This document shows, in pieces, positions 10,743 through 49,987 of a stretch of DNA of 64,000 bases; position 1 is the first letter of the stretch; the number at the start of each line of letters is the position of its first letter. The DNA is from Actinomycetota bacterium. Its GTDB lineage: Bacteria; Actinomycetota; Actinomycetes; S36-B12. Made by a program: the position numbers and the translations under genes. The stretch covers positions 414 through 64,413 of the forward strand of contig WLOY01000001.1 of assembly GCA_009699015.1 (NCBI GenBank), read 5' to 3'. The notes beneath the pieces are model-generated. The model did no database searches. It was not told the origin of the DNA and saw only the letters and a list, made by a program, of their open reading frames with translations.

Positions 10743-11639
10743 CTACCCAGCGAATCGATGACCGATCCGGCCACGAGCCCCGGGCCGCAGCCGAAACAGC
10801 GAGCCAGCAAGCGGCTGCTGTGCCATCTGATCTGCAGAGAGTCGGTGGCGTGACGTCGGAACGAACAGATCCGCGAGATCACGTCCGCCAAACGCCACGC
10901 TCGTCGTGCAACTCGCGGGCAGAAGTAATCGTTGGATCTCCGCACCTTGCTGGTCGAATCGTCTGACCTGTCCCCCGCCAAAGAAGGCGACCCACACACA
11001 CCCCTCGTCGTCGATCGTCAGTCCATCAGGCAATCCGTCAGCCGGGTCGAACTGCGCAAACGGGGTGCGCTCCCCAAGCCGCCCCTCAGGGGTCACCGGA
11101 TAGGTATCGATCCGATGCCGGCTGCTGTCGACATGCATGAGTGTCGAGGCGTCCGGCCAATCCATGCCATTGGAAATGGTGAGATCCCCGAGGACCTGCT
11201 CACAGGTCCCGTCCGGGTCGATCCGGTACAGGGCCGCCTCACCCGCAGGGCGGTATCCATCCGGGCGCTGGGAGCACATCGTCCCTGCCCACAGTCGTCC
11301 CTGTGCGTCACACACCGCATCGTTGAAGCGGTTGTAGGGATCTAGGGATGACAAGTCAACCAACGTCCGGCGAGATCCATCGGACTCCGTCAGCACGATG
11401 GTCAGGCCGATACCCATGACATACCCGCCCGAGCGACGCGGAATTGCAAAGCCAAGTGGTGTGTCAATCACCTGTGTCGACTGCTCCCCCGTCGCGGGAT
11501 CGCACAACCGAAGGAGCCCTGCATGGATGTCGACACGCGAGAGGATCCCGCTGTGCTCGTCCCAATGCGGTCCCTCGCCCAGCATGTCATCAGCGATGAA
11601 CACCGTGCAGTTCTCAAGCTGTTGCAGCTCATTCCACAT
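10743..11639 (-). CDS. SMP-30/gluconolactonase/LRE-family lactonase
   Basis: 298 aa. LGEGPHWDE near the N-terminus, repeated beta-propeller blades, and DGLTIDDEGCVWVA. Confidence 0.8.
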   Translation of the reverse strand: MWNELQQLENCTVFIADDMLGEGPHWDEHSGILSRVDIHAGLLRLCDPATGEQSTQVIDTPLGFAIPRRSGGYVMGIGLTIVLTESDGSRRTLVDLSSLDPYNRFNDAVCDAQGRLWAGTMCSQRPDGYRPAGEAALYRIDPDGTCEQVLGDLTISNGMDWPDASTLMHVDSSRHRIDTYPVTPEGRLGERTPFAQFDPADGLPDGLTIDDEGCVWVAFFGGGQVRRFDQQGAEIQRLLLPASCTTSVAFGGRDLADLFVPTSRHRLSADQMAQQPLAGSLFRLRPGARGRIGHRFAG

Positions 11640-14926: not shown

Positions 14927-16672
14927 GTGTGGGGAGGGATTCCAGTGGAGACGGCTGTCAGGGCCCAGGCGCAAGAGCAGCTCCTTGCTCGCTCTTGGAC
15001 ACGGTCTCGCGCGTTTGGCCTTGATCAGGGAGCGCCCCTTGAGTTGCCGTTCCATGCCGGGGTCGAATCCGACAATCGATTCACGCGGACGGCCCGTCCC
15101 GTTCTCGACTACCTCGGGGATCTGCTACCAGGATGCGGCACCGCCGCGGTCCTCCTCGATGCTCAGGGATGCATCCTTGCCCGCGTCTGTGACGACGACT
15201 CGCTCCTTCGACGGATGGACAGCGGCAAGAGCGTCCCCGGCTTCGTGTGGAGGGAGGAGTACGCCGGCTGCAACGCTGTAGGCATTGCGCTGGAGGAACG
15301 TCTCCCCGCATGGACGAGCGGACAGGATCATTACATGGAGGTCTTGCGCGACCTGTCATGCGCAGCAGCACCGATCATCAACCCCCTCAGCCAGCGACTC
15401 GAAGGCGTCCTTGACCTCACGGCTAACCTCACATTCGCCCATCCGCTGATGCTGCCTTTAGCGATACAGGCAGCCAAGTCGATCGAGGAAAGGCTCGTCG
15501 CTGCTGGGTCGGCGACAGAACAATTGCTCCTCCGCCGCTTTCTCTCGGCCTCCCGACGGCCAGGTCAAATGGTCCTCGTCCTGAGTGAGCGATCCGAACT
15601 CAGCACCAAGGCCGCGGCCCGACGCCTCAGTGCGTCTGACCGGGCGGTGATCGCCCACGCGGCGAGCGAACAAGTCGATGGCACTGACTCGAACACCTTT
15701 GACCTCGCCCTCACGGATGGTGGAGCCGTATCGGTGCGCTGCGAGACCATCGAGGCCCAAGGCCGCAGGGTGGGCTCGGCCGTCACGATCACGAGTCGGG
15801 ATGCCGGTCGCACCACACGTCGAGGCCCTGCGGTCACGTCCGGGTCTTTGGGATCAATCTCCCCGAGCCCGGGCTTCCTAGGACGAAGCTCAGCGAGCCA
15901 ATCAGTCCGTCATGACGCCGGCGAACTGGCTACCGCAGCATTCCCGATACTGATCTCGGGCGAGTCTGGGGTGGGGAAGGTTCACCTCGCAAGCATCATC
16001 GGACGAAGCCTTCGAAACGTCCTCCTGCTCGACGCACGCACGTATTGCGAGGAAGGCGAGCGGGCGCTTCTTCGAGAGCTCTCTGCGTTCGTTCACAAGG
16101 CTCACACGTGCGTCATCGTCCGCAACATCGAGGTGCTGTCCGATCATGTCCTGAGAGAACTGGGCTCCGTCGCCCGCGTTGCCGAGGAGAATGGCTCTCG
16201 AGTCATCACCACGACCACGTCTACCTCCGATATCACCCGCGACAACCGACTGCCAATAGGAATCGGGATCCACATTCCTCCGCTCAGGGAACGACCGGAG
16301 GACATCTGGGACCTTACCCCAGCACTCCTCGCACGCAAGGGCTCGAATATCCGAACGGCAGCACCAGTATTGGAGGCCTTCATGCGCTATCCCTGGCCAG
16401 GCAACGTCAGTGAACTCGATACAGTGCTGTCCGCCATGTTGCACCGATGCCGCGGATCTCAACTCAGCCTTGCCGACCTTCCCGTTCAATACCATCGCGG
16501 CGGAAGGCGACTGCGCCGCATCGAGCACGTCGAGCGCGCAGCAATTGTGCAGGCCCTCGCGGAGGCAGGTGGTAACCGAACGAAGGCAGCGGGGATTCTC
16601 GAGATCGGCCGCGCCACGCTTTATCGAAAAATGCGTGTCTACGGACTCGGTCCAGACAGCGTCGCGATCTGA
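14927..16672 (+). CDS. GAF-AAA+-Fis(HTH_8) transcriptional activator with degenerate AAA+ module
   Basis: Walker A GESGVGK, PPLRERPEDI, WPGNVSELD, and the C-terminal HTH NRTKAAGILEIGRATLYRKM. The GTG at 14945 has a better-spaced GGGGAGGG RBS. Confidence 0.8.
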   Translation: MWGGIPVETAVRAQAQEQLLARSWTRSRAFGLDQGAPLELPFHAGVESDNRFTRTARPVLDYLGDLLPGCGTAAVLLDAQGCILARVCDDDSLLRRMDSGKSVPGFVWREEYAGCNAVGIALEERLPAWTSGQDHYMEVLRDLSCAAAPIINPLSQRLEGVLDLTANLTFAHPLMLPLAIQAAKSIEERLVAAGSATEQLLLRRFLSASRRPGQMVLVLSERSELSTKAAARRLSASDRAVIAHAASEQVDGTDSNTFDLALTDGGAVSVRCETIEAQGRRVGSAVTITSRDAGRTTRRGPAVTSGSLGSISPSPGFLGRSSASQSVRHDAGELATAAFPILISGESGVGKVHLASIIGRSLRNVLLLDARTYCEEGERALLRELSAFVHKAHTCVIVRNIEVLSDHVLRELGSVARVAEENGSRVITTTTSTSDITRDNRLPIGIGIHIPPLRERPEDIWDLTPALLARKGSNIRTAAPVLEAFMRYPWPGNVSELDTVLSAMLHRCRGSQLSLADLPVQYHRGGRRLRRIEHVERAAIVQALAEAGGNRTKAAGILEIGRATLYRKMRVYGLGPDSVAI

Positions 16673-18309
16673 TGGACGCGGCGTCAATTGACGGGTCCAC
16701 TCAGCATCCATCCCGACCCAAGCGTTTGATGACGTCCGCGAGCGTGATGAATGAGCCGAGCGTCGTGGGCGACATCACGACCATCTGGGCGCGACGAGAC
16801 CCGACGCGGGTAGCCCTACGCAACAAGGACGGCGTAGAGCGCACCTATGCCGAACTCGAGGATCGAACAACACGCATCGCCAACGGCCTGCTCGCCATGG
16901 GGCTAACCGCCGGCGATCGCATCGCAACCTGGATGGACGACTGCTTCGAATATGTCGAGGTGTACCTGGCCGCGGCAAAGGCGGGGCTGATCATCTGTCC
17001 CATCAATGCCCGACTCACCCCGGCCGAGGCCACCTACCTCCTCAATGACAGTGGCCCGCGGATCATCATCTGGACTGCGGATCTCGATGAGAAGGTGGCC
17101 GAACTTGATGATCGTGAAATGGTGGATCGACATCGCCTCCGAATCAATCCGGGTGGCGAATGCCAACTCGCGCGCCTCATCGAGGCCTCGCCTCCCAACC
17201 TCCAGCCCGTCGATGTCGATCCGGCCAGCCCGTTGATCCTGGGCTACACGAGCGGAACCACCGGGCGTCCAAAGGGAGCGATCCTCACCCACGAGTCCAT
17301 TCTCGCCCTGGGCCGAATCAACGCCACGTCATTCCGAATGACCGCCTACCCGCGAATGGCACTCACCGGCTCGATGTCGTTCGTCGCCGTGGTCCCTGCC
17401 CATGTGCTGTGCACGCTGAGACTTGGCGGCTGCCTCACAATGATGGGCAAATGGACAGTCGATGAACTGCTGGCGGTCCTTGAACGCGACCTGATCACCT
17501 TTACATACATCCCCTCCCCACTGATCACCGACGTTGCACGAGCGCTAGCCCAGCACCCACAGGCGTGGACAAACCTGCGCTCAGTCCTGCACTCCGCAAG
17601 CCGAGCACGACCGGACCAGTTACATGAACTCGTGACGGTGATCGGTACCCGCTTGGTTGAGGGCTGGGGGATGACCGAAAACTCGGGCGGCCTCATGACC
17701 GCCATGCTCGGACATGAGTATCTCGGCCGCGAGGTACACGACCCCGCGTTCACGTCGGTCGGGTTACCAGCCCTTGACATCTCCGTACGGGTCGTCGGCC
17801 CTGAGGGGCACGAACTTCCGCATGACGGTGAGAGCATCGGCGAGTTGGCCTTCTCCGGGCCGTCACTGATGACCGGCTACTGGAACCGCCCTGAAGAGAC
17901 GGCAAAGACTCTGCGGGACGGCTGGTTCTTCACCGGCGACTTGGGAAGTATCGACAGCGCCGGTTACGTGTACATCTCAGACCGTCGAACAGACCTCATC
18001 GTCAGCGGCGGCGCGAACGTCTACCCGAGCGAGGTCGAGGATTGCATCAGCCAGTTGGCAGGAGTGCGTGAGGTCGCAGTCGTCGGGGTTCCACATGAGC
18101 GCTGGGGCCAGACCGTAGTTGCGGCCATTGTGGTAGACGATGATTCCATCACCCAAGAGGTCGTGCTCGAGCACTGCCGGACGTTCTTGGCAAGCTACAA
18201 GAAACCCACTCGCGTCCTAATGATGGAGTCACTCCCCCGCACTGTCAGCCTCAAAATCTCGCGCGCTGCAGTCCGAACCATCGTCCTCGAGCAGGTTGAA
18301 CCGACGTGA
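16672..18309 (+). CDS. AMP-dependent acyl-CoA synthetase/ligase
   Basis: YTSGTTGRPKGA, GWGMTE, TGDLG, PRTVSLKISR. The ATG at 16672 overlaps the regulator stop (TGATG); an alternative ATG lies at 16729. Confidence 0.85.
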   Translation: MDAASIDGSTQHPSRPKRLMTSASVMNEPSVVGDITTIWARRDPTRVALRNKDGVERTYAELEDRTTRIANGLLAMGLTAGDRIATWMDDCFEYVEVYLAAAKAGLIICPINARLTPAEATYLLNDSGPRIIIWTADLDEKVAELDDREMVDRHRLRINPGGECQLARLIEASPPNLQPVDVDPASPLILGYTSGTTGRPKGAILTHESILALGRINATSFRMTAYPRMALTGSMSFVAVVPAHVLCTLRLGGCLTMMGKWTVDELLAVLERDLITFTYIPSPLITDVARALAQHPQAWTNLRSVLHSASRARPDQLHELVTVIGTRLVEGWGMTENSGGLMTAMLGHEYLGREVHDPAFTSVGLPALDISVRVVGPEGHELPHDGESIGELAFSGPSLMTGYWNRPEETAKTLRDGWFFTGDLGSIDSAGYVYISDRRTDLIVSGGANVYPSEVEDCISQLAGVREVAVVGVPHERWGQTVVAAIVVDDDSITQEVVLEHCRTFLASYKKPTRVLMMESLPRTVSLKISRAAVRTIVLEQVEPT

Positions 18310-18332: not shown

Positions 18333-19025
18333 CTACTCGAGGTCTAGATCAGGTTCCAGATGGTTCGTGTCATTGAACCGTCTCAGAAGCCAGTCATCGC
18401 CCCGAACGACCAGGTGCGTCAAGGATGCGTTGTCGGACTCCGATAGGGAGTGCATCCGGCCACCCGTGGCCAGTGCCGAGATCATTCCGATGACGCCACC
18501 ATGGGTGAAAACGACCACCCGCTGATTCGGATGGTTTGACGCTATTCGCTTGATGGCACCAGTGAGACGTCTCGCAAAGTCGACTTCCTGCTCCGCCATG
18601 GGAATAACGTCCCAGGTCCTTTCAGCAAGCACACGCTGCCAGTCTGGGTGGTTCTCTTCACGACGAATTCGGTAGACGCCCCCCTCCCACTCACCGAGAA
18701 AGATCTCACGAACATCGGGCTCAACCATCGGAGTCAGCCCGGTAATCTCCGCCAACGGCGCAGCCGTCTGTGCCGTCCGCTGAAGGGTGCTCACGTAGAT
18801 CGCGTCAATCGGTTGCTTCGCAAGTCGCGCTGCGACCATGCCCGCCTGCACATGCCCTCGCGGATCAAGGGGCGGGTCACCGTGCCCGTCGACGAGCGGT
18901 TGGGGGTCGTCAAGACGAAATGGCCTGGATTCGCCATGGCGCACGATGAAGATGTGCGTGGCTCCTTCAGGCAGACTGAATCGATTTTGGCGGTATTCAA
19001 CCACAGCCGGCTCATCTTTTGTCAT
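18333..19025 (-). CDS. histidine phosphatase family protein (PGAM-like)
   Basis: IFIVRHGES catalytic RHG motif. The ATG at 19025 overlaps the upstream stop (ATGA). Confidence 0.8.
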   Translation of the reverse strand: MTKDEPAVVEYRQNRFSLPEGATHIFIVRHGESRPFRLDDPQPLVDGHGDPPLDPRGHVQAGMVAARLAKQPIDAIYVSTLQRTAQTAAPLAEITGLTPMVEPDVREIFLGEWEGGVYRIRREENHPDWQRVLAERTWDVIPMAEQEVDFARRLTGAIKRIASNHPNQRVVVFTHGGVIGMISALATGGRMHSLSESDNASLTHLVVRGDDWLLRRFNDTNHLEPDLDLE

Positions 19026-20467
19026 GACGGCAGATCCATTTCCCTTGACGATGCTGATGGAATATCCGGACGTGCCCAAGTCGCGGCACCCGAGCCCGCA
19101 ACACGACCGAAGACGAAGGCACTGGTAATCGAGTTTCCACTACCGACATAGACGTCGCCGACAACTCCCCCGGTGCACTCCCCTGCAGCGAATAGCCCCG
19201 GAACGGCAGCGCCCGAATCGGCAAGCACCCGCGCCTGCGAGTCGATTCGCAACCCCACCGCCGTCAGTGCGACATGCGCCATGCGGAGTTCGGTGGCGTA
19301 GAAGGGTGGCGTCTGGACCTTCCGCAGGACATCTGCACGCTTGCGGTAGTGACTGTCCTGCCCGGCAGTTACGTCGTGGTTGTATTCCTCAATCGTCCCA
19401 AGGAGCCGCTGTTCCGGGACTCCCATCAGGGCCGCCAGTTGCTCAAGGGAATCCGCCTTCAGCACTCTTCCTCGCTCGACCATCTCATCGAGCATCGCCT
19501 TCACCCACTTCTGCGCACGCCCGTCTCGTTTCCCCACCGAGACCTTCTTCGTAGCTTCGACGGTGTCAGGCGAAGACGAGTTCTTTGACTCCTCGTCGAA
19601 TACAGCAAAGACCGGGGCGCGCTGGCCCTCCAAGATGGGCTGAGTAACGCTGTAGGACGACGTCTCATCGTAAAAGCGTCGGCCCTCACCATTGACGATG
19701 ACGAGCCAACCGGGCAGGTACCCACCCTCAAGTACGTTTCCAAAATTTGGGGTAATCAACCGGGTCGCGCGACCCCCGCCTACAACTTGGGCGTCAACCT
19801 GCGCTCCAAGTTCGAACGCGCTCCCATCAGACGTTGCTGCACCGATGTACCAGTACCAGTCCTCATTCGCGAGTAAAGGCAGGTGCTTGCTCACCAACTC
19901 ACGGTTCGCTGCGAACCCGCCCGTCGCCATGACGACAGCTCCAACCGACAGTGTGTCTGCGCCTACGGCTAGGCCTACCACTTCGCCGTCTGCGACAAGC
20001 AACCTGTCAACCTTCATCCCCAACGCGAATTCAACGCCAATTCGCTTGGCCTCGCTCACGAGCGTCTGACTCACGGCCATCCCCTCACCCACCGTGATGT
20101 GCATACGCGCGGCGCGTTCTTCACCTGAGGTCATGACCCTGGAGTCGAAGGCCACCCCGATGTCCTGCAACCAGTCGATCGTCGCGCCCGATCGCTCACA
20201 GAGCGTCCGGATGACCGACGGCTCAAGCCGAAAGCGATTGAGCCCCATGTAGAAGCGGTACATGTCCTCGGGATCGTCCTCGATGCCAGCCTCTCGCTGC
20301 AAACGAGTGCAGGCTCCCATGAGCTTGCCTCCTGAGAGTCGGCTGGACCCCCCTAGCTCACCTGAACCCTCAAGAACGATGACTGATGCACCCTCAGCAC
20401 GCGCCGTGATTGCCGCGGTCAGCCCAGCGAATCCTGAGCCGATGACCGCAACGTCGAAGTCGGTCAT
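19022..20467 (-). CDS. FAD-dependent oxidoreductase, KstD/fumarate-reductase flavoprotein-like
   Basis: MTDFDVAVIGSGFAGLTAA dinucleotide fold, GELGGSS, and C-terminal GLFAAGECTGG. Start 20467 overlaps the upstream stop. Confidence 0.8.
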   Translation of the reverse strand: MTDFDVAVIGSGFAGLTAAITARAEGASVIVLEGSGELGGSSRLSGGKLMGACTRLQREAGIEDDPEDMYRFYMGLNRFRLEPSVIRTLCERSGATIDWLQDIGVAFDSRVMTSGEERAARMHITVGEGMAVSQTLVSEAKRIGVEFALGMKVDRLLVADGEVVGLAVGADTLSVGAVVMATGGFAANRELVSKHLPLLANEDWYWYIGAATSDGSAFELGAQVDAQVVGGGRATRLITPNFGNVLEGGYLPGWLVIVNGEGRRFYDETSSYSVTQPILEGQRAPVFAVFDEESKNSSSPDTVEATKKVSVGKRDGRAQKWVKAMLDEMVERGRVLKADSLEQLAALMGVPEQRLLGTIEEYNHDVTAGQDSHYRKRADVLRKVQTPPFYATELRMAHVALTAVGLRIDSQARVLADSGAAVPGLFAAGECTGGVVGDVYVGSGNSITSAFVFGRVAGSGAATWARPDIPSASSREMDLPS

Positions 20468-22359
20468 GACACTGCGCCGGTCAAGCGCGCACTCAGCAGA
20501 CGGGCGGCCCAAGAGTTGTCCCCGTCCGCGACAATCCCCGCCCACGGGCCGCCGGACGGGCGAAAGTCGATACCCGCAAGATTTCGAGGCAGGGTTATGA
20601 ACACTTCGGTGTCAGGGTCGGCTACCTCGAAGACACGATCGCAGGTGCGACTCAGCAGCGCCGCTGAATCAGCCCCCTCCCATGCCACATTGATCAACAC
20701 GGCCCTTGAGCCCTCACGGACGTCCTCCGGCACCGTGACCACGTGCAAATCTGCCCGAGGTGCAGCCAGCAGTGGAACCTGCCCCCTCTCGTCGCACCAG
20801 GCGAGGATGCGCGAAACCCACTCGCTCGCCACGGGGGCAGAAAACTCAGCGGCGCCGAGAAGGACGCGTCCGTCATCGCCCGACACGGTAATGAGGTCAC
20901 CCTCGTGGATAACCGCCCCAGACGCAAAGGAAACGGAGCGTTCCTCATGATGAATGGTCATCCCTGTCACTCCGCAGGAAGCCGGCTTGCCCATCCCTCG
21001 CGCAACGACGGCGGCATGACTCGCTCGTCCACCGAGGGCAGTGACGATGCCGGACGATGCGATCATGCCGCTGATGTCCTGCGGTGAGGTCGTGGGACAG
21101 ATGAGCACCGGCACAATGCCCTGCTCTGCCAATTCCTCAGCACGCGAGGAATCCAGGACGGCGCAACCGACCGCCGTCCCGGGAGATGCCGGAACACCCA
21201 CCCCGAGTTCGGTCAACCCCGCGAACGTCTCGCACACGGGCGCCTGCAGCATCTCAAGAGCGCTGAGCGACACTCGATCAAGCGCGGCCTCAACATCGAT
21301 CATGCCCTGATCAACGAGATCGACAGCTATACGTGCTGCCGCTGCAGGGCTCCGTTGACCCACCCTCGCCTGCAAAATCCAAAGCTTGCCATGTTGGATC
21401 GTGAACTCGACGTCACACATGTCCGTGTACTCATGCTCCAACTTGGTCAGGGCATCTTGGAGCGCCTCCCAGACCTCGGATGACTCGCGCCGCAACGAAT
21501 CGATCGACTCGGGAATCTGGGAACCATTCACGACGTCTTCGCCCTGCGCACAGCGCATGAAATCACCGTAGGCCGCTGGGTGACCGGTCGCGGGATCTCG
21601 GGTGAACACCACTCCGGTGCCCGAGTCATTATCAAGATTTCCGAACACCATTGCCTGCACCGTTACCGCAGTACCGAGGTCATCTGGGATTCCTCGGTAC
21701 TTCCGGTAGCGCTGGGCTCGTGGGCGATCCCACGAGCGCCAGACCGCCTCGATGGATTCGCGCACCTGACCCACGGCCTTCTGAGGGAATGGCGGTCCAT
21801 GCTGCTCGATGGCGTCCTTCCACAACTGGACACTTTCCGTATCGTCGGCGTGCTCAGCCCGCGAGTGCGCTCGGGCGAGCACGTCCGCCGGGAGTTCGCG
21901 TACGACCTCGGCGAAGGATGCCAGGAGACGGATATACGACTGCCAGGCGAAACGATCCGAGGTCCTCGCGGCCACGCCCACCACCACGTCGTCACTCATC
22001 CCGACATTGAGGACGGTATCCATCATCCCGGGCATCGACTGGGACGCACCCGATCGCACCGAGAGCAGGAGCGGATTATCAGGGTTGTCCAATTCCTTGT
22101 TGAGTCGTGCAGCCAGTTGAACGAGATGGAGGGTGATCTCGTCGCCCAGCACATCCGGGAGAACCGGCTCCTTCGTCGCGAATGCCTTCCATGCCTCGGT
22201 GGTGATGGTGAAGCCGGGAGGAACCGGAAGCCCGAGGGTCCCAGTCATCCTCGCCAGACTCGCCCCCTTGCCGCCAAGGTACATACGGTCGCTCAGGGGC
22301 GACTCGAACGTGTGAAGGTACTGCGGCGCAGTTCGGTCAGTCCTTGATTCGTCAGGCAT
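20464..22359 (-). CDS. PPDK/PEP-synthase-like protein: ATP-grasp N-domain + phosphohistidine swivel domain, no PEP/pyruvate barrel
   Basis: LGGKGASLARMTGTLGLPVPPGFTITTEA (PPDK N-terminus) and GGRASHAAVVARGMGKP (phosphohistidine motif). The last ~135 aa have none of the RTEHMF, GTNDL or CGE barrel motifs. The ATG at 22359 overlaps the LLM stop by 8 nt. Confidence 0.8.
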   Translation of the reverse strand: MPDESRTDRTAPQYLHTFESPLSDRMYLGGKGASLARMTGTLGLPVPPGFTITTEAWKAFATKEPVLPDVLGDEITLHLVQLAARLNKELDNPDNPLLLSVRSGASQSMPGMMDTVLNVGMSDDVVVGVAARTSDRFAWQSYIRLLASFAEVVRELPADVLARAHSRAEHADDTESVQLWKDAIEQHGPPFPQKAVGQVRESIEAVWRSWDRPRAQRYRKYRGIPDDLGTAVTVQAMVFGNLDNDSGTGVVFTRDPATGHPAAYGDFMRCAQGEDVVNGSQIPESIDSLRRESSEVWEALQDALTKLEHEYTDMCDVEFTIQHGKLWILQARVGQRSPAAAARIAVDLVDQGMIDVEAALDRVSLSALEMLQAPVCETFAGLTELGVGVPASPGTAVGCAVLDSSRAEELAEQGIVPVLICPTTSPQDISGMIASSGIVTALGGRASHAAVVARGMGKPASCGVTGMTIHHEERSVSFASGAVIHEGDLITVSGDDGRVLLGAAEFSAPVASEWVSRILAWCDERGQVPLLAAPRADLHVVTVPEDVREGSRAVLINVAWEGADSAALLSRTCDRVFEVADPDTEVFITLPRNLAGIDFRPSGGPWAGIVADGDNSWAARLLSARLTGAVS

Positions 22360-23350
22360 TCTCGGCTTCCATCTCGCGGATGAACGGCAGTACCCTCTCG
22401 GCAAAAAGGTTGAGGCTCGCCCAACCCACCTCCGGATCCAAGCCAGCGACCAGAGGATGAAGGGTGATAATCGTGTCTGGCGAGTACCCCTGCACGAGCT
22501 CAATTGCCTCGTCGGGCGTCACCACCAAGTACCGACCACCTGTTCGCAACTCCTCGATCGTTGGCGGGGTAACCCCCGCCGGTCCCGACATCGGCGTGTC
22601 GGTACTCGACCAACGTGCGTAATTGCCCGCCTCCAGCAGGAAGTGAGGGGCGAGGACCTCCCACGCAGAGTCAACGTCATCGGTCACATGAATGAGATGA
22701 GGACCGCCGCGCGAGTACTCCTTCGCCCTCGGTAATCCATTGGCGAGCCGCTCCTCTTGGAACACCTCGTATGCAGCCGCATTGAGCGGGAAGTACTCCA
22801 TCCCCAGTCGCACCGCACGCTTGGCAGCAGCTCCAGACGAGCCGCCAAGGATGAGTGGCGGACCACCCGGTGTCATCGGGCGCGGTGTCACGCGAAGGGT
22901 TCGACCTTGGTACTCAAACTCTTCGCCAATCCACGCCTGACGAAGAAGCCGCACTCCTTCCTCCATAAGCTGGCCTCGCTTGCTTCGGTCAACGCCGAAC
23001 ATCTCGAACTCGGCAGCGTTGTAGCCCGCAGCGACAACAACATCGAGCCGACCGCCGCTGAGGATGTCGAGGACAGCCAAGTCCTCCGCGACCATGATCG
23101 GATCGTGGAGCGGTAGAAGAACGGCCGACAGGTTGATGGTGATGCGCGAGGTGACCGCTGCAACCGCCGAGCCCAGAACCATGATCGATGGGCACCAGTT
23201 GTCCTCGGTGCCGTGGTGCTCCCCGATGCGGATCGCATCGAGCCCTTGATCGTCGGCCCAACGTGCCATCTGCAGACCCGCCGAGTAAACCTCTGATAGT
23301 GGCTTACCCCAATTCGGACTCTGCAGGTTGAGCCTCATATCGACGCGCAT
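22352..23350 (-). CDS. luciferase-like (LLM class) flavin/F420-dependent oxidoreductase
   Basis: 332 aa. IGEHHG and LLPLHDPIMVAEDLAVLDILSGGRLDVVVAAGY. Paralog of 11629-12681. Confidence 0.85.
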   Translation of the reverse strand: MRVDMRLNLQSPNWGKPLSEVYSAGLQMARWADDQGLDAIRIGEHHGTEDNWCPSIMVLGSAVAAVTSRITINLSAVLLPLHDPIMVAEDLAVLDILSGGRLDVVVAAGYNAAEFEMFGVDRSKRGQLMEEGVRLLRQAWIGEEFEYQGRTLRVTPRPMTPGGPPLILGGSSGAAAKRAVRLGMEYFPLNAAAYEVFQEERLANGLPRAKEYSRGGPHLIHVTDDVDSAWEVLAPHFLLEAGNYARWSSTDTPMSGPAGVTPPTIEELRTGGRYLVVTPDEAIELVQGYSPDTIITLHPLVAGLDPEVGWASLNLFAERVLPFIREMEAENA

Positions 23351-23414
23351 GACTAAACTCCCTCATTCATACGTTGGCAGCCGAGAAGCGGTAAGGCGCA
23401 GGTTGAAACGACGG

Positions 23415-25061
23415 TCAATGACCGGCACGGCGCCTTGCTGCCGCTTCCGCCCAGGTCGACTCTCCCGCCTCCTTGCGGATGCGATCAATGTCCGCCCGCA
23501 CGATGACCGATCCTCGACCCTTGAGAAGACGTGAGTACTCCTGCGTGTATCGGTACATGGCATCGACATCCGGATCCTGATACCCGTACTTCACTGATGC
23601 GTCGTCGAAATTGCGCCACGGTGCAGCCAGCAAGGGAGACGTGTAGCTGCGTGCCTTGGCATTGAGCTCATCCTCCGTCAGTCCGCCATCCAGGAATTGG
23701 TAGGTGCTCGACTTACGAGGGAGCTCAGAGCGACTTGATGACTCTCCATCACTGGCACGACGGGTGTAGTCATGATCGTTGAGCACATATGCCGGCACGA
23801 GTTGCGCGACACGACCAGCCTTCGGCAGGGACATGTTCGCCCCTGCCTTCCATGAACGGTAACTGTACGGATGGATGTAGTACTCACCCGCTGCACCATG
23901 GAGACCGTCAAAGGCGACGTAGTCACTCATGAAGGATGCGGTTCCGTACTCTTCGTTGAACACCGGCCACAGTCGTCGCACCCGGTCGTCGATGCCCTCC
24001 CACTCCGCCTGATCCCAGGTTCCGGACATGAACGAAACATCTGACAAGGCGTACACGTAGGCGAGGATTCCCGCCTCGGTCATCTCGTCGAAGTTCATCG
24101 CTGCAAAGCGTCGGTGCAGGGGAGTTATAGCCGCCTTCACCACATCTGCGATCTCATTGAGCGTCCGGATGAGTTCAGCCTTGCTGCTCATGCCGACCGG
24201 GATGAGTCGGTCGGTGAAGATGTCGGATGTGTACAGGCCGACTCCGATGACGTGCTGTTGGTAGGTCTCCGGCACGGTGTAGGCGCTGCCGAAATCCGTC
24301 ACCTCGATGCGCACATCGTCAGTAATGAGGGAGAGCGTTAGGTTCTGGTAGGGGATGTCCGCTGCCACGCCATCCATCCACGGCAGGCCACTTTCACCCA
24401 GAGTCAGGAAGTTCCGCACGTGAAGCATGCGCTGGTCGCCCAAGTTATAGGGACCATTTGCATCCATGCCCACGCGACTTTCGCAGTAGACGAGGAAGCT
24501 GTACTGGCTCGTCACGGCGCTGAATCGAGCCACCGCCGCCCGCAGTTCATCGTCGACCTCGTAGGCATCGGCCTCGAGAACTTGAAGGACTCGCTCGTCG
24601 AGCACCTGAGACATGTCGCCCGCAGCGTTCGTCCAGATGTGACCCTCGTTGCGTCGGTAGGTCGACATGACTCGCTCGTGCCAGTCGATGACGTACCAGA
24701 GGTCCTCAAGATTGTCCTCTGGTCGCAGGACTCCAAGCTTGATGAGCTCGACCCGCCCCTGGAGGTACAGCAATTGACCACCCATATTCGCGGCCAAAGT
24801 TCCGAGTTGAATGCTCGAGTTGCGCATCCGATGGCCTACGTCCTCGGGACTGATGTGCTCAGAGGCTTTGCGGAGAATCCCGGGGTACATGTAATACGCC
24901 TGCATGAAGGACATCATGAAATACGGAAGCATTGGGAATAGCTTAGATTCTTGGGCCGTTCGCGTGAGCAAGTTCGGCACGATGGTGTCGTCATGCTCGG
25001 CCAGAGCCGTGTTGACGAGGTGAAGTTGCGCTTCGCTGATTCGCCACTCGCTCACTGTCAT
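23415..25061 (-). CDS. hypothetical protein, 548 aa, no family recognised
   Basis: Long uninterrupted ORF whose amino-acid composition is unlike the Arg/Pro-rich antisense artefacts. Its ATG at 25061 overlaps the stop of the swivel-domain gene (ATGA). Confidence 0.7.
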   Translation of the reverse strand: MTVSEWRISEAQLHLVNTALAEHDDTIVPNLLTRTAQESKLFPMLPYFMMSFMQAYYMYPGILRKASEHISPEDVGHRMRNSSIQLGTLAANMGGQLLYLQGRVELIKLGVLRPEDNLEDLWYVIDWHERVMSTYRRNEGHIWTNAAGDMSQVLDERVLQVLEADAYEVDDELRAAVARFSAVTSQYSFLVYCESRVGMDANGPYNLGDQRMLHVRNFLTLGESGLPWMDGVAADIPYQNLTLSLITDDVRIEVTDFGSAYTVPETYQQHVIGVGLYTSDIFTDRLIPVGMSSKAELIRTLNEIADVVKAAITPLHRRFAAMNFDEMTEAGILAYVYALSDVSFMSGTWDQAEWEGIDDRVRRLWPVFNEEYGTASFMSDYVAFDGLHGAAGEYYIHPYSYRSWKAGANMSLPKAGRVAQLVPAYVLNDHDYTRRASDGESSSRSELPRKSSTYQFLDGGLTEDELNAKARSYTSPLLAAPWRNFDDASVKYGYQDPDVDAMYRYTQEYSRLLKGRGSVIVRADIDRIRKEAGESTWAEAAARRRAGH

Positions 25062-25792
25062 GCTCCTTCGTTTGCTGGGAGAATGAGGGCCCGTGGCTTG
25101 CGGTCCTCTTCGAGAAATGCCTCAGCGTCCTGCGCCTCGGTCGAGTACTTCACCGTCACTCGTTCGCCATCCACGAGAGGTCGGCTCAGGCGAGATGCCA
25201 TGAGCGTCGGGACCCCAAATTCACGGCCAAGAATGCCAAGGTGACTCCGCACCGTCCCCGCCAGGCAGATAACGGCCTCGAAGTCGGGAAGCAAGGGTGC
25301 CGTAAGCGTGCCGCCGCTGTCATCGATCACCGCAATGGTGCCTTCCGGCACACCATCGTCGATGAGCCGATTCACGTCAGCCACCTTGCGGATCACGAGC
25401 ACGTTTCCGGTGACATCCTCAGTCCGGAATACATTGTCGCCGTCGCCAATCGCCCCCGTCGCGAACTCGGAAGCGTCGTAGTAGGTGTCACCGTCAGAAC
25501 GAAGGACGTACATGTGCGGCTTGTCCAGAACGGAGATCTCGGCCCCCGCATAGAACTTGCGCCCTTGCGACGCCTGAAACTCGGTCAGGATCCCATCGGC
25601 AATCGCCTGCGTCTGCTCCCGAGTGAGGAGTTGTGCCCAATGCTGGCCAACAAGTTCCGACCAGGCGCGACCCGACTTCTCAAGGTTGTCGTTCACCTGG
25701 GAAATCACCTTGCTCCGGGTCATTCCGGTAAGGACGCCGCCTAGCGTGTCCTCGGCGAAGCTCCATTTTGGTTGACCAGTTGCGTACTTCAT
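25058..25792 (-). CDS. PEP-utilising-enzyme mobile (swivel) domain protein
   Basis: 244 aa from MKYATGQ, with GGGAAAGG upstream. The C-terminal half GTIAVIDDSGGTLTAPLLPDFEAVICLAGTVRSHLGILGREFGVPT matches the phosphohistidine swivel domain. Confidence 0.75.
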   Translation of the reverse strand: MKYATGQPKWSFAEDTLGGVLTGMTRSKVISQVNDNLEKSGRAWSELVGQHWAQLLTREQTQAIADGILTEFQASQGRKFYAGAEISVLDKPHMYVLRSDGDTYYDASEFATGAIGDGDNVFRTEDVTGNVLVIRKVADVNRLIDDGVPEGTIAVIDDSGGTLTAPLLPDFEAVICLAGTVRSHLGILGREFGVPTLMASRLSRPLVDGERVTVKYSTEAQDAEAFLEEDRKPRALILPANEGA

Positions 25793-25866
25793 TTCGCGCC
25801 TTTCCCTATTTGCCTTAAGGAATATGTCACGTGAGAACAAGGTAGTCGAGCTTGGCTCGACACCGC

Positions 25867-25906
25867 CTTGTCTGCCCCGCCCTGAAGATTGGGCGAGGCA
25901 GACAAG
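25867..25906 (-). terminator. intrinsic-terminator-like hairpin after the SBP gene
   Basis: CTTGTCTGCCCCGCCC / GGGCGAGGCAGACAAG forms a 16-bp stem (1 mismatch) with an 8-nt loop, 14 nt past the stop at 25920. A second 7-bp hairpin lies at 25845-25861. No U-tract. Confidence 0.6.
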
Positions 25907-25919
25907 ACTGATGAAACTG

Positions 25920-27125
25920 CTACTTGGCGAAGGCTGCTGTCGCCTCTTCCTTGGTGAGAGCACCTGACATGTCCGCACTTGGCGGGAACGTGTTGTCACA
26001 CGCTGGCAGAACGCCCTCGAGGGTGTTGATGTAGGACGGGTACGCGATCAGCGTGTCCCCATCCGTCGGGCCGAGTTCCGGTGCAGCGATCCCCTGGAAC
26101 GCTGCGAACAGCTTGGCCAGGCTAAGCGCATGCAGGTTCTGCGAACCGTCGAGGCTCTGAACCTGGAACTTCGGATCCTTCTTCACGGCCTTGTTAATCT
26201 CGCACACAGTCTCCATGGAGGCAGACTGACCGGTGATCGCCGGGTACGGCACGCCCGCTGCTTCGTACGCGCGCATGATCGCCGGAATCGTGGCGGTGTA
26301 GGTCGAGATGATCCCGTTGATGCTCGGGTCCTTCTGAAGGAGACCGGTCACTGCCTGCTGGGTTGCTGCGGGATCCCAGTTGCCGGCAACCGGCTCGGGG
26401 GTCACAACAGTGATGCCTGAACCCTGATTGGCGATCGCCTTGTTCACTGCTGCGAGCGACGGGACATCAAAGAGGTTTCCGGCCGGACCACCGATGTAGG
26501 CGACCTTGCCAGCGTTGTTCGTGGCCTTGGTCAGCCACTCGACCCACATCTCCGCCTCCTGCTGCATATCGGGGATCACGTTGGCCGTGACATCAGCGGG
26601 AACCTTGGCATCACCGGGAATGGCATTGCCGTTTCCGATGAGCACGCCGGCTGCCTGAGCCTTCTTGAACGCCTCGACCGGCGCCTGTCCGAAGGCATCG
26701 AACGTCTCGATGACATTGGCACCCTGCGCGACAAGGCTGTCTACACCGGCGATGTACTGCTGAACATCGAAGTTCGAATCGACGTAGAGGACGTCGGTAA
26801 CGTTCGGGCACTGAGCAGAAAGCTTCTCCAGGATGGCCTTCTTGCCTACCGCCCAGCCGTTGCCGCCGTATGCATCGAGGATGCCGACGACCATTGGCTT
26901 GGTGCCGCAGTAGTTGGTGATGTCAAAAGGCAACTCACCGAGCATGATTTGTGTGCCGTCTACAGCTGGTGCCGCCGCTTCGCTCGAAGCAGGGGCTGCC
27001 GCCTGGCTCGAAGCTGGAGCCGCAGCCTCGCTCGGTGTTGTCGACGTGGACGACGAGCTACAGGCCGAGGCCAGCAGCAGCAGTCCGACGGCCGGAATTA
27101 TCGCGGCCGCATGCATTTTTCGCAT
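25920..27125 (-). CDS. ABC transporter substrate-binding lipoprotein (CUT2/PBP1 sugar-type)
   Basis: Signal peptide plus lipobox LLLLASAC, then an Ala/Pro/Ser linker and a periplasmic-binding-protein type 1 pattern. AAGGAG RBS. Confidence 0.85.
   Translation of the reverse strand: MRKMHAAAIIPAVGLLLLASACSSSSTSTTPSEAAAPASSQAAAPASSEAAAPAVDGTQIMLGELPFDITNYCGTKPMVVGILDAYGGNGWAVGKKAILEKLSAQCPNVTDVLYVDSNFDVQQYIAGVDSLVAQGANVIETFDAFGQAPVEAFKKAQAAGVLIGNGNAIPGDAKVPADVTANVIPDMQQEAEMWVEWLTKATNNAGKVAYIGGPAGNLFDVPSLAAVNKAIANQGSGITVVTPEPVAGNWDPAATQQAVTGLLQKDPSINGIISTYTATIPAIMRAYEAAGVPYPAITGQSASMETVCEINKAVKKDPKFQVQSLDGSQNLHALSLAKLFAAFQGIAAPELGPTDGDTLIAYPSYINTLEGVLPACDNTFPPSADMSGALTKEEATAAFAK
26965..27035. 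repeat. three tandem 24-nt repeats inside the SBP linker
   Basis: The units gctggtgccgccgcttcgctcgaa / gcaggggctgccgcctggctcgaa / gctggagccgcagcctcgctcgg encode (E/Q)AAAPASS x3 on the minus strand. Confidence 0.8.
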
Positions 27126-27179: not shown

Positions 27180-27483
27180 CCGCTTCGTTCCCTGCAACCT
27201 GCCCTTCACTTCGAAAACCAAAGTCAAGATGGCCATGCACGCACTGCATCATCCATGAGGAGGACGAATCGGAACCTACCTGCCGTTTGGTTTGAAATCA
27301 AGAGTTATTCGAAACTTGGAGTAACTTCTTGATAACGACGTGTCGAGCGAACCGTAGATCGACCTAGCGCCTGACCACAGCAATCGTGGGACGACATCGG
27401 GGGGTGCAACTGCCTGAAGGGAGCGTTGTCGCAGATTTCGCATCTGCCTACCTCATCGCCGGTGACTGATTTCCGTGGGGTAC

Positions 27484-27511
27484 TTGACACCGAACGACCG
27501 TTTGGTAAGTT
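27484..27511 (+). promoter_or_regulatory. candidate promoter TTGACA-16 nt-TAAGTT with CGTTTGGT box in the spacer
   Basis: -35 at 27484-27489 and -10 at 27506-27511, about 29 nt upstream of the GTG at 27540, which has a GGAG RBS. Confidence 0.5.
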
Positions 27512-27539
27512 CAAGGCACCACAACATTTGGAGCGGGTA

Positions 27540-28487
27540 GTGCAGTCCTACGAAGGGTCCATCTGGACCGAATACGACGAGTTACCAATCCACGAGGGGC
27601 TCGGTCTGCGCCACTCTTGGGGGCTCTTGGACTCCAACCTCGGATCACTGACCTTCTTGAGTCCTCTCGATCTCGTCGCTGCATCCACGGGGGTTACCGA
27701 AGGTGAGGCCATTCCGCTCAACATCTCACTGGGGCTTATCGACCCGCCTATGTTCGGGCGGGTGGCATGGAAACACACCGTTGAAGCCGCCGATAGAAAC
27801 ACGTTCGAGGACGTCCTCGACAACTACAACCCGCAGTCGTCCTCGCAGTGGGACGGCTTTCGGCATGTGCGGGCAAGGGAGGCTGGCTTCTTCGGCGGCA
27901 TCACCGAGTTCGCTGAAGGTGACATTGAGTCCTTAAGCATCGAGCACCTTGCGCGCCGAGGCATTGCAGGACGTGGCGTGCTACTCGACGTTGCTGGGTG
28001 GCTCGACTCACGGGGTACCCCCCTCGATCCCCTTTCGGGTGACCTCGTTGAGGCGAGCACCCTCGAGATGGTGGCTGAAGCACAGGGTGTGTCCCTCCAG
28101 CAAGGGGACATCCTGTGCATACGACTTGGCTGGGTTGGTGCCTATCGGCTCATGTCCATCGAGCAGCGCGCGTCACCCGAAGTCTCCGGACGATTCACCG
28201 GCCTACGCTCGAACGAGGACACCGTGCGCTTCCTGTGGAACAACCGGATAGCGGCTGTATGTACCGATAATCCGGCTGTTGAAAGCGCGCCTGGCAATCT
28301 TGAAGACGGTTCCCTGCACCGGCGTCTCATCCCGATGCTCGGCATGGTCTTCGGCGAGTTGCTCGACCTCGACCCACTGGCCCGACGATGCGCAAGCATC
28401 GGGCGCTACGACTTCCTCTTCGTGGCCGTTCCGCTGCCCATCCCGGGTGGCCTCAGCTCCCCAGCGAATGCGATGGCGATTCTATGA
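27540..28487 (+). CDS. cyclase-family protein, paralog 2
   Basis: ~60% identical by eye to 46761-47684. GRGVLLDV, GDILCIRLGW and C-terminal PGGLSSPANAMAIL. The GTG at 27540 was chosen by N-terminal alignment with the paralogs; the ORF is open from 27426. Confidence 0.7.
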   Translation: MQSYEGSIWTEYDELPIHEGLGLRHSWGLLDSNLGSLTFLSPLDLVAASTGVTEGEAIPLNISLGLIDPPMFGRVAWKHTVEAADRNTFEDVLDNYNPQSSSQWDGFRHVRAREAGFFGGITEFAEGDIESLSIEHLARRGIAGRGVLLDVAGWLDSRGTPLDPLSGDLVEASTLEMVAEAQGVSLQQGDILCIRLGWVGAYRLMSIEQRASPEVSGRFTGLRSNEDTVRFLWNNRIAAVCTDNPAVESAPGNLEDGSLHRRLIPMLGMVFGELLDLDPLARRCASIGRYDFLFVAVPLPIPGGLSSPANAMAIL

Positions 28488-33135: not shown

Positions 33136-33835
33136 CTAGCGCATATTCGCCAAGTGTGCGGCGTACGGATCTCTAGGTGATTGCCATGACAGTACTGCCA
33201 TGGGTCGGTCGCGCTTGCGCTGGGAGATGCGTCGGCGGTGGGCGGGGGCGTGGTCCAGTTCGGTTTCCTTGGGCATGTGTTGTCGCGAGACTCCGTTGCT
33301 GTTCTCATCGGATCGGCGCTGCCATGGCGAGTGGGCCTCGGCGAAGTAGATGTCGATGCCCAGTTGCCTGGCGAGTTCGTGGTGATCGGACATTTCCTTG
33401 CCCTGGTCCCAGGTGATGGAGATGACGTGCCAGGCCCGCATGCGCCGGGTGGACACCTTGACGGGGATGGTGATCCTGGTGACTCGGCAGGCGAGGGTCG
33501 CGAGCGCGGTTCGGTCGCCTGCTCCCGCGGGGCGCTTGTCGATCATGGTCATGTCCATGATCCTTCCGCTGCCGCAGTCGGTTTTCGCCCTGGGCTGCCG
33601 CCGGGTCCGGGGCCTCGTCATGAGACTGCGGATGAACTTTCTGTCGTGGGTGTCGCCGGCGTAGAGCCAGTCGCAGACGCACCTGCGGGCTGATCGTCGG
33701 CAGGTGCGGGCACGGCCGGGCGGCATGCGTCCCGGACCGGCGACGCATCTCCTGGGAGATCGTGGACTGATCGGCACCGACCGCCGCACCGATGGCCTCA
33801 CGCAGTGGCAAGGTCAGACGGGCAACCTTGATCAT
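33136..33835 (-). mobile_element. IS30-family transposase pseudogene (frameshifted, shortened)
   Basis: The N-terminal HTH (AIGAAVGADQSTISQEMRRR) is in one frame. The DDE core (ITWDQGKEMSDHHELARQLGIDIYFAEAHSPWQRRSDENSNG) is in another. Total length is only ~700 nt. Confidence 0.75.
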
Positions 33836-49926: not shown

Positions 49927-49987
49927 GTTGCCAACCGCTCTGCACTTGGGCTCATCGATCCGCTCACCCGGTGACAATCCCTTTGGG

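Follow-up and report, generated by a model that had tools for sequence, protein, structure and literature searches.

An orphan protein family linked to split PPDK-type phosphotransfer proteins in an actinomycetotal catabolic island: a candidate multi-component dikinase

Introduction

Where does the phosphoryl group go in a PPDK-like system that lacks the domain for binding phosphoenolpyruvate (PEP) or pyruvate? This question is raised by a six-gene operon at 18333–25792 of the window, by which we mean the whole 64,000-nt stretch of Actinomycetota bacterium DNA analyzed here (assembly GCA_009699015.1, contig WLOY01000001.1, positions 414 to 64,413). The operon encodes a lone swivel protein (i), an orphan protein (ii) and a truncated PPDK-like protein (iv), together with two redox enzymes (iii and v) and a phosphatase (vi). 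With slightly better than even confidence, we suggest that (i), (ii), (iv) and a distantly encoded protein, c5, would form a multi-component ATP-dependent dikinase of the PEP-utilising-enzyme superfamily, which transiently phosphorylates a ketone during its catabolism. The substrate is most likely a hydroxylated or enolisable ketone. Below, L-numbers denote related loci and P-numbers database proteins; A1 is the profile of the orphan family, and A2 and A3 are HpeH/RPH-like profiles.

Results

Layout of the operon

The six genes and the element in front of them are as follows.

25058–25792, minus strand: (i), 244 aa, a lone swivel phosphohistidine carrier with an N-terminal region of about 125 aa followed by a PEP-utilizers mobile domain.
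23415–25061, minus strand: (ii), the orphan, 548 aa in a family of about 550 aa, the proposed acceptor-site (substrate-binding/catalytic) subunit.
22352–23350, minus strand: (iii), 332 aa, a luciferase-like (LLM) flavin/F420-type oxidoreductase, PF00296.
20464–22359, minus strand: (iv), 631 aa, a VadK-like truncated PPDK with an ATP-grasp domain and its own swivel histidine, His448.
19022–20467, minus strand: (v), 481 aa, an FAD_binding_2 flavoprotein of the fumarate-reductase/KstD/vinyl-phenol-reductase type, PF00890.
18333–19025, minus strand: (vi), 230 aa, a branch 1 histidine phosphatase with an RHGES motif, PF00300, proposed for the dephosphorylation step.
25867–25906, minus strand: a GC-rich hairpin between the gene of a substrate-binding protein (SBP) and (i), a candidate factor-independent terminator or boundary.

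The junctions from (i) to (vi) measure −4 (ATGA), +64, −8, −4 (ATGA) and −4 (ATGA) nt. Thus, every coordinate of the six open reading frames (ORFs) and of their overlaps is reproduced as given by an earlier reading made from the letters alone (the sequence-only reading). The hairpin that it had placed upstream of the operon, after the SBP gene, is also found, though without a T-tract. It has a stem of 16–18 bp and a folding free energy of −41.5 kcal/mol (z −7.85), and 0 of 200 shuffles fold equally well; the simple terminator scan made no call there. The hairpin is likely a factor-independent terminator or boundary, and the operon therefore probably has its own promoter within 25793–25866. Simple terminator and promoter scans of the window are uninformative, and the Rfam scan of the window reveals no RNA family.

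Pfam and NCBIfam scans agree with the domain content that had been described for all six proteins. PF00296 matches (iii) with 153 bits, and the best NCBIfam match of this protein, TIGR03619, is below its cut-off. PF00890 matches (v) with 166 bits, all NCBIfam equivalogs being below cut-off, and PF00300 (His_Phos_1) matches (vi) with 152 bits. The order of all six genes is kept in three other assemblies (L005, L006 and L007) at 64–98% amino-acid identity.

Two swivel histidines and no PEP/pyruvate barrel

PF00391 (PEP-utilizers) is the sole Pfam domain of (i), at 25.4 bits against a cut-off of 23.1; in NCBIfam the protein matches the C-terminus of the PRK08296 family and PEP synthase. Its phosphohistidine motif is TVRSH184, where His184 is the predicted catalytic residue. 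This histidine and the motif C..GT.RSHL.I..RE.G.P.LM are invariant in 53 of 53 homologues of (i).

Protein (iv) matches PPDK_N (PF01326, 156 bits) and PEP-utilizers. Its alignment to PPDK covers residues 20–540 of 875 (E 1e-116) and ends there, and only positions 3–533 of 865 of TIGR01828 are covered. The swivel motif reads GGRASH448AAVVARG, with the consensus GG(R/S)(A/T)SHAAVV(A/S)R in 21 of 25 homologues, and the regulatory Thr of PPDK is replaced by Ala. With the NF004531/PRK05878 equivalog model, (iv) scores 440.9 bits against a cut-off of 456, a near miss; judged by sequence, (iv) is a member of a subfamily related to the VadK-type NF004531 rather than an equivalog. PEP-utilizers_C (PF02896), the PEP/pyruvate TIM barrel, is matched by none of the six operon proteins. 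Hence, the profile searches give what the sequence-only reading expected, i.e., PPDK_N and PEP-utilizers without PEP-utilizers_C, and a blank for the orphan.

The last 100–130 aa or so of (iv), past the swivel domain (window 20464–20862), have no Pfam match and lie outside the PPDK alignment. tblastn reaches this tail in homologues from Solirubrobacterales and stops short of it in a distant clade. The tail might be a docking domain.

The orphan family as a partner of swivel proteins

The orphan has no match in Pfam, NCBIfam or PDB sequences by sequence and profile searches. Its AlphaFold2 model has a mean predicted local distance difference test score (pLDDT) of 84 and a predicted TM-score of 0.86, and Foldseek against the PDB returns nothing below E 0.6, with only faint, partial START/Bet v1-like matches, which we do not rely on. 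Judging from the model, the fold appears to be novel. The family has more than 100 invariant residues, including those in RTAQESKLFP, DNLEDL, CESR and GPY.

The family is large. A word-indexed search gives 186 hits, and an exhaustive profile search at E<1e-3 finds 463 representatives of 50%-identity clusters; the members are always annotated as hypothetical. A scan of one genome per species yields 55 orphan loci, in Solirubrobacterales, Nanopelagicales, Frankiales, Pseudonocardia, Rhodococcus, Alphaproteobacteria (Marinibaculum, Sneathiellaceae) and Gammaproteobacteria. Short-form relatives occur in Betaproteobacteria, and the family is also present on catabolic megaplasmids.

Three database proteins (P0136, P0197 and P0200) are single-chain fusions of an N-terminal PEP-utilizers domain to an orphan-like chain. 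Two Rhodococcus plasmid proteins of 542 and 577 aa look like fusions of the same kind: the former has an N-terminal swivel domain, and profile A2, which includes both, matches A1 with 97.9% probability, unlike the clean HpeH-like profile A3. An apparent swivel–orphan fusion ORF in L048 was discarded as a frame artefact of the ORF caller. In a sister family of about 380 aa, which matches orphan positions ~12–355, a gene for a 117-aa swivel protein precedes. Since the adjacency of swivel and orphan genes is strict, natural fusions join them and the His residues are invariant, the sequences strongly support the orphan as a dedicated partner of swivel proteins. This agrees with the split PPDK-type phosphotransfer system with an orphan partner that had been proposed for the operon. 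To our knowledge, swivel domains serve only as phosphoryl shuttles linking two active sites, and thus the orphan would most simply be the second active site.

In a neighbour-joining tree many Solirubrobacterales hold two orphan paralogues, and the clade of the window holds one. Paralogue A follows the small swivel gene; paralogue B either is the second copy of a tandem or comes immediately after the truncated PPDK gene without an intervening small swivel gene. In five loci the gene of (iv) immediately precedes that of an orphan paralogue, and no small swivel gene separates the two. Each of the swivels may thus have an orphan protomer of its own to dock on.

We also considered the orphan as a divergent RPH/HpeH acceptor domain and rejected this assignment. 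Profile A1 first aligned to A2 with 97.9% probability, and A2 is contaminated, since it includes both of the apparent Rhodococcus 542/577-aa fusion proteins; the clean hhalign comparison of A1 with A3 gives 0.07% probability. The control HpeH/RPH-like profile finds the RPH structure 5FBS at 1e-46, and Foldseek of the orphan model gives no match to the RPH structures 5FBS/5HV1. The Pfam copy used here apparently does not include PF27448, as a protein annotated Rph_4th matched PEP-utilizers only.

Related arrangements are found elsewhere. The sister family (~380–400 aa, the first two-thirds of the orphan) stands with a 117–125-aa swivel gene upstream at L061 1062–2559, L062 287–1784 and L063 7878–12248. 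On the Rhodococcus plasmids a sister-family pair, a swivel–orphan fusion and a DUF7065 protein follow each other just upstream of the main 12-gene operon described below. The Methylibium petroleiphilum PM1 plasmid RPME01 (L064 9956–12172) encodes an orphan-like protein of 415 aa, a 153-aa protein and a 149-aa swivel protein. This set adjoins a MarR gene and a 2-hydroxyisobutyryl-CoA mutase cluster (B12-binding subunit, AMP ligase, MeaB and mutase), a histidine phosphatase gene is near, and the host degrades methyl tert-butyl ether.

The conserved core and the variable phosphatase

Co-occurrence was counted in the 37 loci holding at least 17 kb, searched with the window proteins and neighbour-gene seeds; these loci are phylogenetically non-independent, so the counts should be read as a description of the data and not as statistics. 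The small swivel gene is present in 34 of the 37 loci and in nearly all of them is directly upstream of the orphan, an adjacency that spans Actinomycetota, Alpha- and Gammaproteobacteria. The (iv) homologue lies within 10 kb of the orphan in 22 loci. An AMP-binding ligase is found within the same distance in 30, often directly upstream of the swivel gene. c5 is present in 29, usually next to the truncated PPDK or the orphan. LLM genes occur in 15 loci, and the FAD enzyme and the histidine phosphatase in two each.

All six window families occur together only in L005, L007 and the shorter contig L006. Hence, the sequence-only view of the six genes as one conserved unit does not hold: only (i), (ii) and (iv) are widespread together, while the LLM, the FAD enzyme and the histidine phosphatase are syntenic only in the close clade L005–L007. 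From these comparisons, (i), (ii) and (iv) are the conserved core, (iii) recurs loosely, and (v) and (vi) are clade-specific additions.

Some phosphoesterase is nevertheless present in 24 of the 37 loci. The slot is occupied by His_Phos_1 in the window, HAD in L001 and L002, Y_phosphatase3 in L003 and Rhodococcus, and PTE in many Solirubrobacterales. By family assignment, this is non-orthologous replacement among four superfamilies. As unrelated phosphatase families fill the same slot, we suggest that the system makes a phosphorylated metabolite that needs later dephosphorylation, and the place given earlier to the phosphatase in the pathway logic is thus retained.

In 12 of the 37 loci pairs of an APH-family kinase and a DUF7064/DUF7065 protein lie near the dikinase genes (L002 13816–15869; L067 1072–3151; L020, L023, L019 and L022), an indication that some versions of the pathway include a further phosphorylation, independent of the first. 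The public label ‘MAG: Bifidobacterium breve’ (metagenome-assembled genome; GTDB records) on L008 and L035 looks wrong: L008 is 95–99% identical to the window proteins, in line with the Nanopelagicales contig L005, and L035 falls among Nanopelagicales loci in the orphan tree and has its gene order in common with them.

c5 and the carboxylase set

The remaining components are encoded in another part of the window.

48541–50130, minus strand: biotin carboxylase (BC; Pfam), given as the longest ORF, the true start being probably near 49910; 55% identical to the L032 BC.
50769–54047, minus strand: DUF35 protein (ChsH2-type OB-fold/zinc-ribbon) and two thiolase-like proteins (Pfam), proposed for beta-ketoacyl-CoA cleavage.
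54181–54696, plus strand: biotin carboxyl carrier protein (BCCP) with the biotinylation motif EVMKLM, 42% identical to the L044 BCCP by tblastn.
54749–56221, plus strand: carboxyltransferase (CT) of the pyruvate-carboxylase/oxaloacetate-decarboxylase type, HMGL-like and PYC_OADA (Pfam).
56293–56871, plus strand: c5, 192 aa, a winged-helix and a helical domain; the longest ORF begins at 56212.
56951–58510, plus strand: second AMP-binding CoA ligase (Pfam), downstream of c5.

c5 has no match in Pfam or among PDB sequences. In its AlphaFold2 model (pLDDT 94) the winged helix-turn-helix resembles ArsR/MarR/AspA and the helical domain has no clear match in the PDB; only the winged helix is recognisable by fold, and no known family was found for c5. 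As a C-terminal extension, c5 is joined to the orphan in the fusions P0124 and P0126, and to both swivel and orphan in the triple fusion P0200. The window c5 matches the extension of P0124 at 2e-12 and that of P0200 at 2e-26. Mycobacterial 201-aa c5 homologues are directly downstream of truncated PPDK genes. Because c5 is fused to the orphan in these three proteins and is present in most of the loci counted above, we assign it to the system, probably as a fourth subunit or a partner of the putative dikinase.

The biotin-dependent carboxylase is linked to the system as well. The window CT is 43–47% identical to CT genes within the swivel–orphan operons of L032 and L045, and genes for BC, BCCP, CT, AMP ligase and thiolase surround the orphan of a more distant clade. 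The whole kinase–carboxylase–phosphatase–ligase gene set is clustered in L031–L047 and occurs in Nanopelagicales and proteobacterial loci. On the plasmids pRB98 of R. oxybenzonivorans and pA of R. pyridinivorans it is contained in a single 12-gene operon in the order swivel, orphan, AMP ligase, c5, truncated PPDK, BCCP, BC, CT, DUF35, thiolase, Y_phosphatase3 and SRPBCC; the pRB98 orthologues of (i), (ii), (iv) and c5 are among CBI38_RS33580–33600. A DUF35/thiolase pair follows the carboxylase in the Rhodococcus operons, L032 and L038. The window holds all of these families, with c5 and the carboxylase, ligase and thiolase genes 23–33 kb away from the six-gene operon. Thus, the six genes are not the complete composition for which they had been taken: c5, BC/BCCP/CT, the CoA ligase and the thiolase at 48.5–58.5 kb had been missed.

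Proposed mechanism

We suggest the following sequence of events, whose order is itself part of the proposal.

Phosphorylation: (iv) would bind ATP in its ATP-grasp domain and phosphorylate its own swivel His448, as its homologue VadK does, c5 possibly assisting. The phosphoryl group would then pass to the orphan active site, either directly from (iv) or via His184 of (i). From the gene adjacency and the fusions we infer that the orphan binds a small molecule, an intermediate of the catabolic route, and catalyses the transfer of the phosphoryl group to it.

Conversion: After the kinase step, the LLM (iii) and the flavoprotein (v) would carry out redox tailoring, followed by biotin-dependent carboxylation by BC, BCCP and the PycB-type CT (48.5–56.2 kb).

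Completion: The product would next be dephosphorylated by (vi), ligated to CoA and finally cleaved by thiolysis.

A variant of the phosphorylation step resembles the phosphotransferase system (PTS), in which the His of the VadK-type kinase (with c5) passes the phosphoryl group to the His of the stand-alone swivel and from there to the new-fold acceptor enzyme, driven by ATP. It is worth considering because the VadK-like donor with c5 sits beside two unrelated types of acceptor: swivel and orphan here, and HpeH/RPH-like proteins in Mycobacterium and Gordonia. We regard such a relay as a tentative option that is probably not the actual route. The two swivel His residues might capture the beta- and gamma-phosphates of the same ATP. 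If the relay were true, the VadK-family proteins, including the M. tuberculosis virulence factor, would be ATP-side modules of split small-molecule dikinases and not protein kinases.

Discussion

Several points weigh against the dikinase scheme. The case for every member is built from sequence, gene linkage and models, and the Pfam score of (i) is marginal (25.4 bits against 23.1). The co-occurrence counts are drawn from loci lacking phylogenetic independence. Swivel His residues are present on both the donor and the acceptor modules, for which the scheme offers no explanation. The carboxylase set is 23–33 kb off in the window and is non-syntenic in L005–L007 within the stretches compared. About 20 loci of the Solirubrobacterales type have PTE, LLM and HAD genes and no carboxylase within 10 kb, and hence the coupling to carboxylation is not universal. 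The winged helix of c5 is typical of transcription factors and VadK has been read as a regulatory kinase, so that a regulatory role is possible. Finally, obvious aromatic ring-cleavage genes are not seen in the island, whose content is of the alicyclic/acyl-CoA type.

If the proteins were regulatory, (iv) would phosphorylate (i), which would pass the group to the orphan and/or c5, and the phosphorelay would sense a metabolite and control the island, as the regulatory branches of the PTS and DhaKLM–DhaR do. c5 fits such a role, as its ArsR/MarR-type winged helix with a helical domain has an architecture like that of GntR-FCD regulators, it is annotated as MarR/ArsR, and its fusions to the orphan, with or without the swivel, resemble one-component sensor–output proteins. 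VadK, too, has been put forward as a histidine kinase with a regulatory function, and it tightly binds Rv1126c, which is encoded in the same operon (PMC13400623); however, according to a section heading of this paper, VadK was not found to control transcription of the methylcitrate cycle genes. Moreover, the genes here are translationally coupled within enzyme operons that already hold dedicated regulators (TetR, GntR, LuxR, PucR and sigma-54-type), phosphoesterases of four superfamilies fit a phosphorylated metabolite better than a phosphoprotein, and more than 100 invariant residues over 550 aa, often in two paralogues, are more typical of an enzyme. Thus, we consider a regulatory relay unlikely. 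Far less probable still is that the operon encodes a split pyruvate phosphate dikinase or PEP synthase with the orphan in place of the PEP/pyruvate domain, or the reverse reaction making ATP from a phospho-intermediate. PPDK is indeed by far the family nearest to (iv) (E 1e-116), and the chemistry of PPDK is known to be reversible. Yet none of the operon proteins has a PEP-utilizers_C TIM barrel, the orphan does not resemble this domain in sequence or fold, the regulatory Thr of (iv) is replaced by Ala, and the context is peripheral catabolism, including that on catabolic plasmids.

The phosphate could also serve as a leaving group: the dikinase would phosphorylate an unactivated hydroxyl, for example of a hydroxyacyl-CoA made by the ligase and short-chain dehydrogenases/reductases (SDRs), and elimination would leave a C=C bond, the course taken in the levulinate lva pathway or by the 25-hydroxysteroid kinase/lyase, carboxylation being a separate step or unrelated. 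Among the neighbours the AMP-binding ligase is the most constant (30 of 37 loci), its gene often immediately preceding that of the swivel, genes for SDRs, alcohol dehydrogenases, acyl-CoA dehydrogenases and enoyl-CoA hydratases are plentiful, ~20 loci have no carboxylase within 10 kb, and APH-family (LvaA-like) kinases are found in 12 of 37 loci. A kinase and lyase precedent is described for steroid side-chain degradation (PMC11061730); the 25-hydroxysteroid kinase is taken here as a mechanistic analogue only. Elimination would need no phosphatase, yet phosphoesterases recur, and no lyase candidate is conserved with the core. In addition, the complete Rhodococcus and Nanopelagicales operons place the dikinase genes between the ligase and BCCP/BC/CT, matching Hpe/Acv. 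We therefore consider elimination about as improbable as the regulatory relay; the lva analogy drawn in the sequence-only reading is possible, but recurrent phosphatases and carboxylases favour it less. Transient phosphorylation of a ketone by the multi-component dikinase is the explanation we prefer.

The catabolic island

The neighbouring genes place the operon in an acyl-CoA/ketone catabolic island, in agreement with the setting recognised from the letters alone. The nearest of them are listed here.

25920–27125, minus strand: periplasmic binding protein (Peripla_BP_4, lipoprotein-type; Pfam), the SBP directly upstream of the operon, a candidate uptake component.
16672–18309, plus strand: AMP-binding acyl-CoA ligase (Pfam), convergent with the operon.
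14927–16672, plus strand: AAA+ sigma-54-activator-type regulator with HTH_8 (Pfam), syntenic in L005, a candidate regulator of the locus.

The Peripla_BP_4 gene is syntenic in L005, L007 and L008, and L003 has a protein of the same family. Sigma-54-activator-type AAA+ proteins in Actinomycetota usually act without sigma-54. Overall, the flanks contain SDRs, acyl-CoA dehydrogenases, enoyl-CoA hydratases, thiolase/DUF35 pairs and four AMP-binding ligases, and also a Baeyer–Villiger monooxygenase (BVMO)-like flavoprotein, LLMs, cyclase-type hydrolases, a lactonase and an ABC importer. The proteins of the window are 95–99% identical to those of a ‘Candidatus Nanopelagicales’ MAG contig (L005).

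At 38393–43829 a BVMO/FMO-like flavoprotein of 619 aa and a permease are encoded, as is an 834-aa protein of unusual build in which an ABC ATPase is fused to a BPD_transp_2 permease; with the SBP at 25920–27125, these may form an uptake system for the substrate. Two ‘putative cyclase’ (kynurenine-formamidase-like) hydrolases are encoded at 27426–28487 and 46761–47684, and an SMP-30/gluconolactonase-like protein at 10743–11639. Taken with the LLMs and the BVMO-like enzyme, the cyclases and the SMP-30-like protein give a hint that the island handles lactones or cyclic ketones. The gene content suggests alicyclic, terpenoid or acyl-CoA-type ketones as substrates rather than classical aromatics. 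At 33136–33801 a weak, sub-cut-off match to the C-terminal end of the integrase core domain (rve) may be what is left of a mobile element within the island.

Significance

The sequences point to a probable new dikinase architecture with an acceptor family that has no known relatives, is broadly distributed and is present on plasmids of culturable Rhodococcus. A large family (463 cluster representatives at 50% identity) with no relative in Pfam, NCBIfam or PDB is thereby proposed as a probable catalytic/acceptor subunit. Ketone catabolism by way of kinase, biotin carboxylase and phosphatase, a scheme described for Hpe/Acv in 2022–2025, would be extended to a third, unrelated kinase solution and to abundant freshwater Nanopelagicales and soil Solirubrobacterales, which points to an unrecognised class of substrates. 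Our proposal also offers a testable answer to the question, raised in 2026, of what VadK of M. tuberculosis phosphorylates, as its relatives are co-encoded with swivel-bearing acceptor enzymes. For experiments, the operons on Rhodococcus plasmids have the advantage of culturable hosts that are open to genetic work.

Comparison with known systems

The closest pathway logic is that of HpeHI and AcvAB, which phosphorylate hydroxyphenylethanones, followed by biotin-dependent carboxylation, dephosphorylation and CoA ligation (PMC12167813; bioRxiv 10.1101/2022.04.28.489975; PMC12624787). Like the two-component small-molecule dikinases HpeHI, AcvAB, CreHI and PpsAB and the single-chain rifampin phosphotransferase RPH, the window system combines an ATP-grasp module with a swivel phosphohistidine and a separate domain for binding the acceptor; as in the two-component dikinases, these parts are distributed over several polypeptides. 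In Hpe/Acv/Xcc the kinase genes are accompanied by those for BCCP, BC, a PycB-like CT, a phosphatase and a CoA ligase, i.e., the set found around the orphan family; in the window all these families are present, split between 18–26 kb and 48.5–58.5 kb. However, HpeI, AcvB and PpsB are of the PEP-synthase type and have no swivel, whereas (iv) is of the PPDK type and keeps its own swivel His. In HpeHI-type systems the acceptor domain is followed by a C-terminal swivel, while here a separate small swivel protein precedes the acceptor, and the orphan is unrelated to the RIF-binding/Rph_4th acceptor domain (hhalign 0.07%). c5 is an extra component that Hpe/Acv lack, and a thiolase/DUF35 pair stands in place of their beta-ketoacyl-CoA hydrolase.

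The kinase resembles VadK (Rv1127c) of M. tuberculosis, which autophosphorylates on swivel His422 with ATP/Mg and tightly binds the operonic Rv1126c (PMC13400623). Both proteins have the same architecture of ATP-grasp and His domains without a TIM barrel, to which (iv) adds about 100 residues at its C-terminus. According to its description, VadK is a regulatory histidine kinase that acts on methylcitrate-cycle enzymes and has no defined phospho-acceptor, whereas the window kinase is co-conserved with dedicated acceptor proteins. VadK and Rv1126c are operonic; c5 of the window is 30 kb from (iv), though it adjoins the truncated PPDK in many loci, and the parallel between Rv1126c and c5 is positional. 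M. tuberculosis is not among the 120 listed matches of the c5 search. In Mycobacterium lentiflavum (L067 6380–14298) and Gordonia westfalica (L068 10001–16706) the truncated PPDK and c5 genes overlap and are operonic with genes for 537–553-aa HpeH/RPH-like proteins (Rph_4th with a C-terminal swivel). Hence, the VadK-like donor with c5 pairs with a second, unrelated type of acceptor. From sequence comparison, the double-swivel design looks like a feature of VadK-type systems.

The N-terminal ATP-grasp and central swivel domains of PPDK/PEP synthase can be aligned residue by residue with (iv), and transfer of the ATP beta-phosphate to His is, by analogy, probably common to both. PPDK has the TIM barrel and the regulatory Thr; (iv) has neither and belongs to peripheral catabolism.

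In the PTS, with Enzyme I–HPr and DhaKLM, the phosphoryl group is relayed over separate His proteins to a small hydroxy-ketone on a dedicated subunit, and the subunits are also regulatory. The donor there is PEP, whereas here it would be ATP via the ATP-grasp domain, with no HPr, EIIA, DhaK or DhaL folds; His-to-His transfer in the window system is so far only hypothesised.

The acetovanillone kinase MarK (UPF0261) demonstrates that unrelated kinase families can fill the kinase step of the kinase–carboxylase–phosphatase route (PMC12624787). It is a single protein making ADP and is unrelated in sequence to the window system. As for the levulinate lva pathway, tblastn with an APH seed (from L048) finds no match in the 64-kb window, and the APH genes of 12 of the 37 related loci stand alongside the dikinase, not in its place. 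A paper on 2-hydroxyisobutyric acid and acetone is irrelevant, as its ‘dikinase’ is SelD. The literature search found no description of a set of swivel and orphan, with or without c5.

Hence, the statement of the sequence-only reading that no characterised system has this composition stands for the acceptor pair (i) and (ii), and it no longer stands for the pathway logic, which is characterised in Hpe/Acv, or for the kinase, which is VadK-like. By analogy, the window system resembles the Hpe/Acv/Pps/Cre dikinases in its working and pathway logic and departs from them in both subunits.

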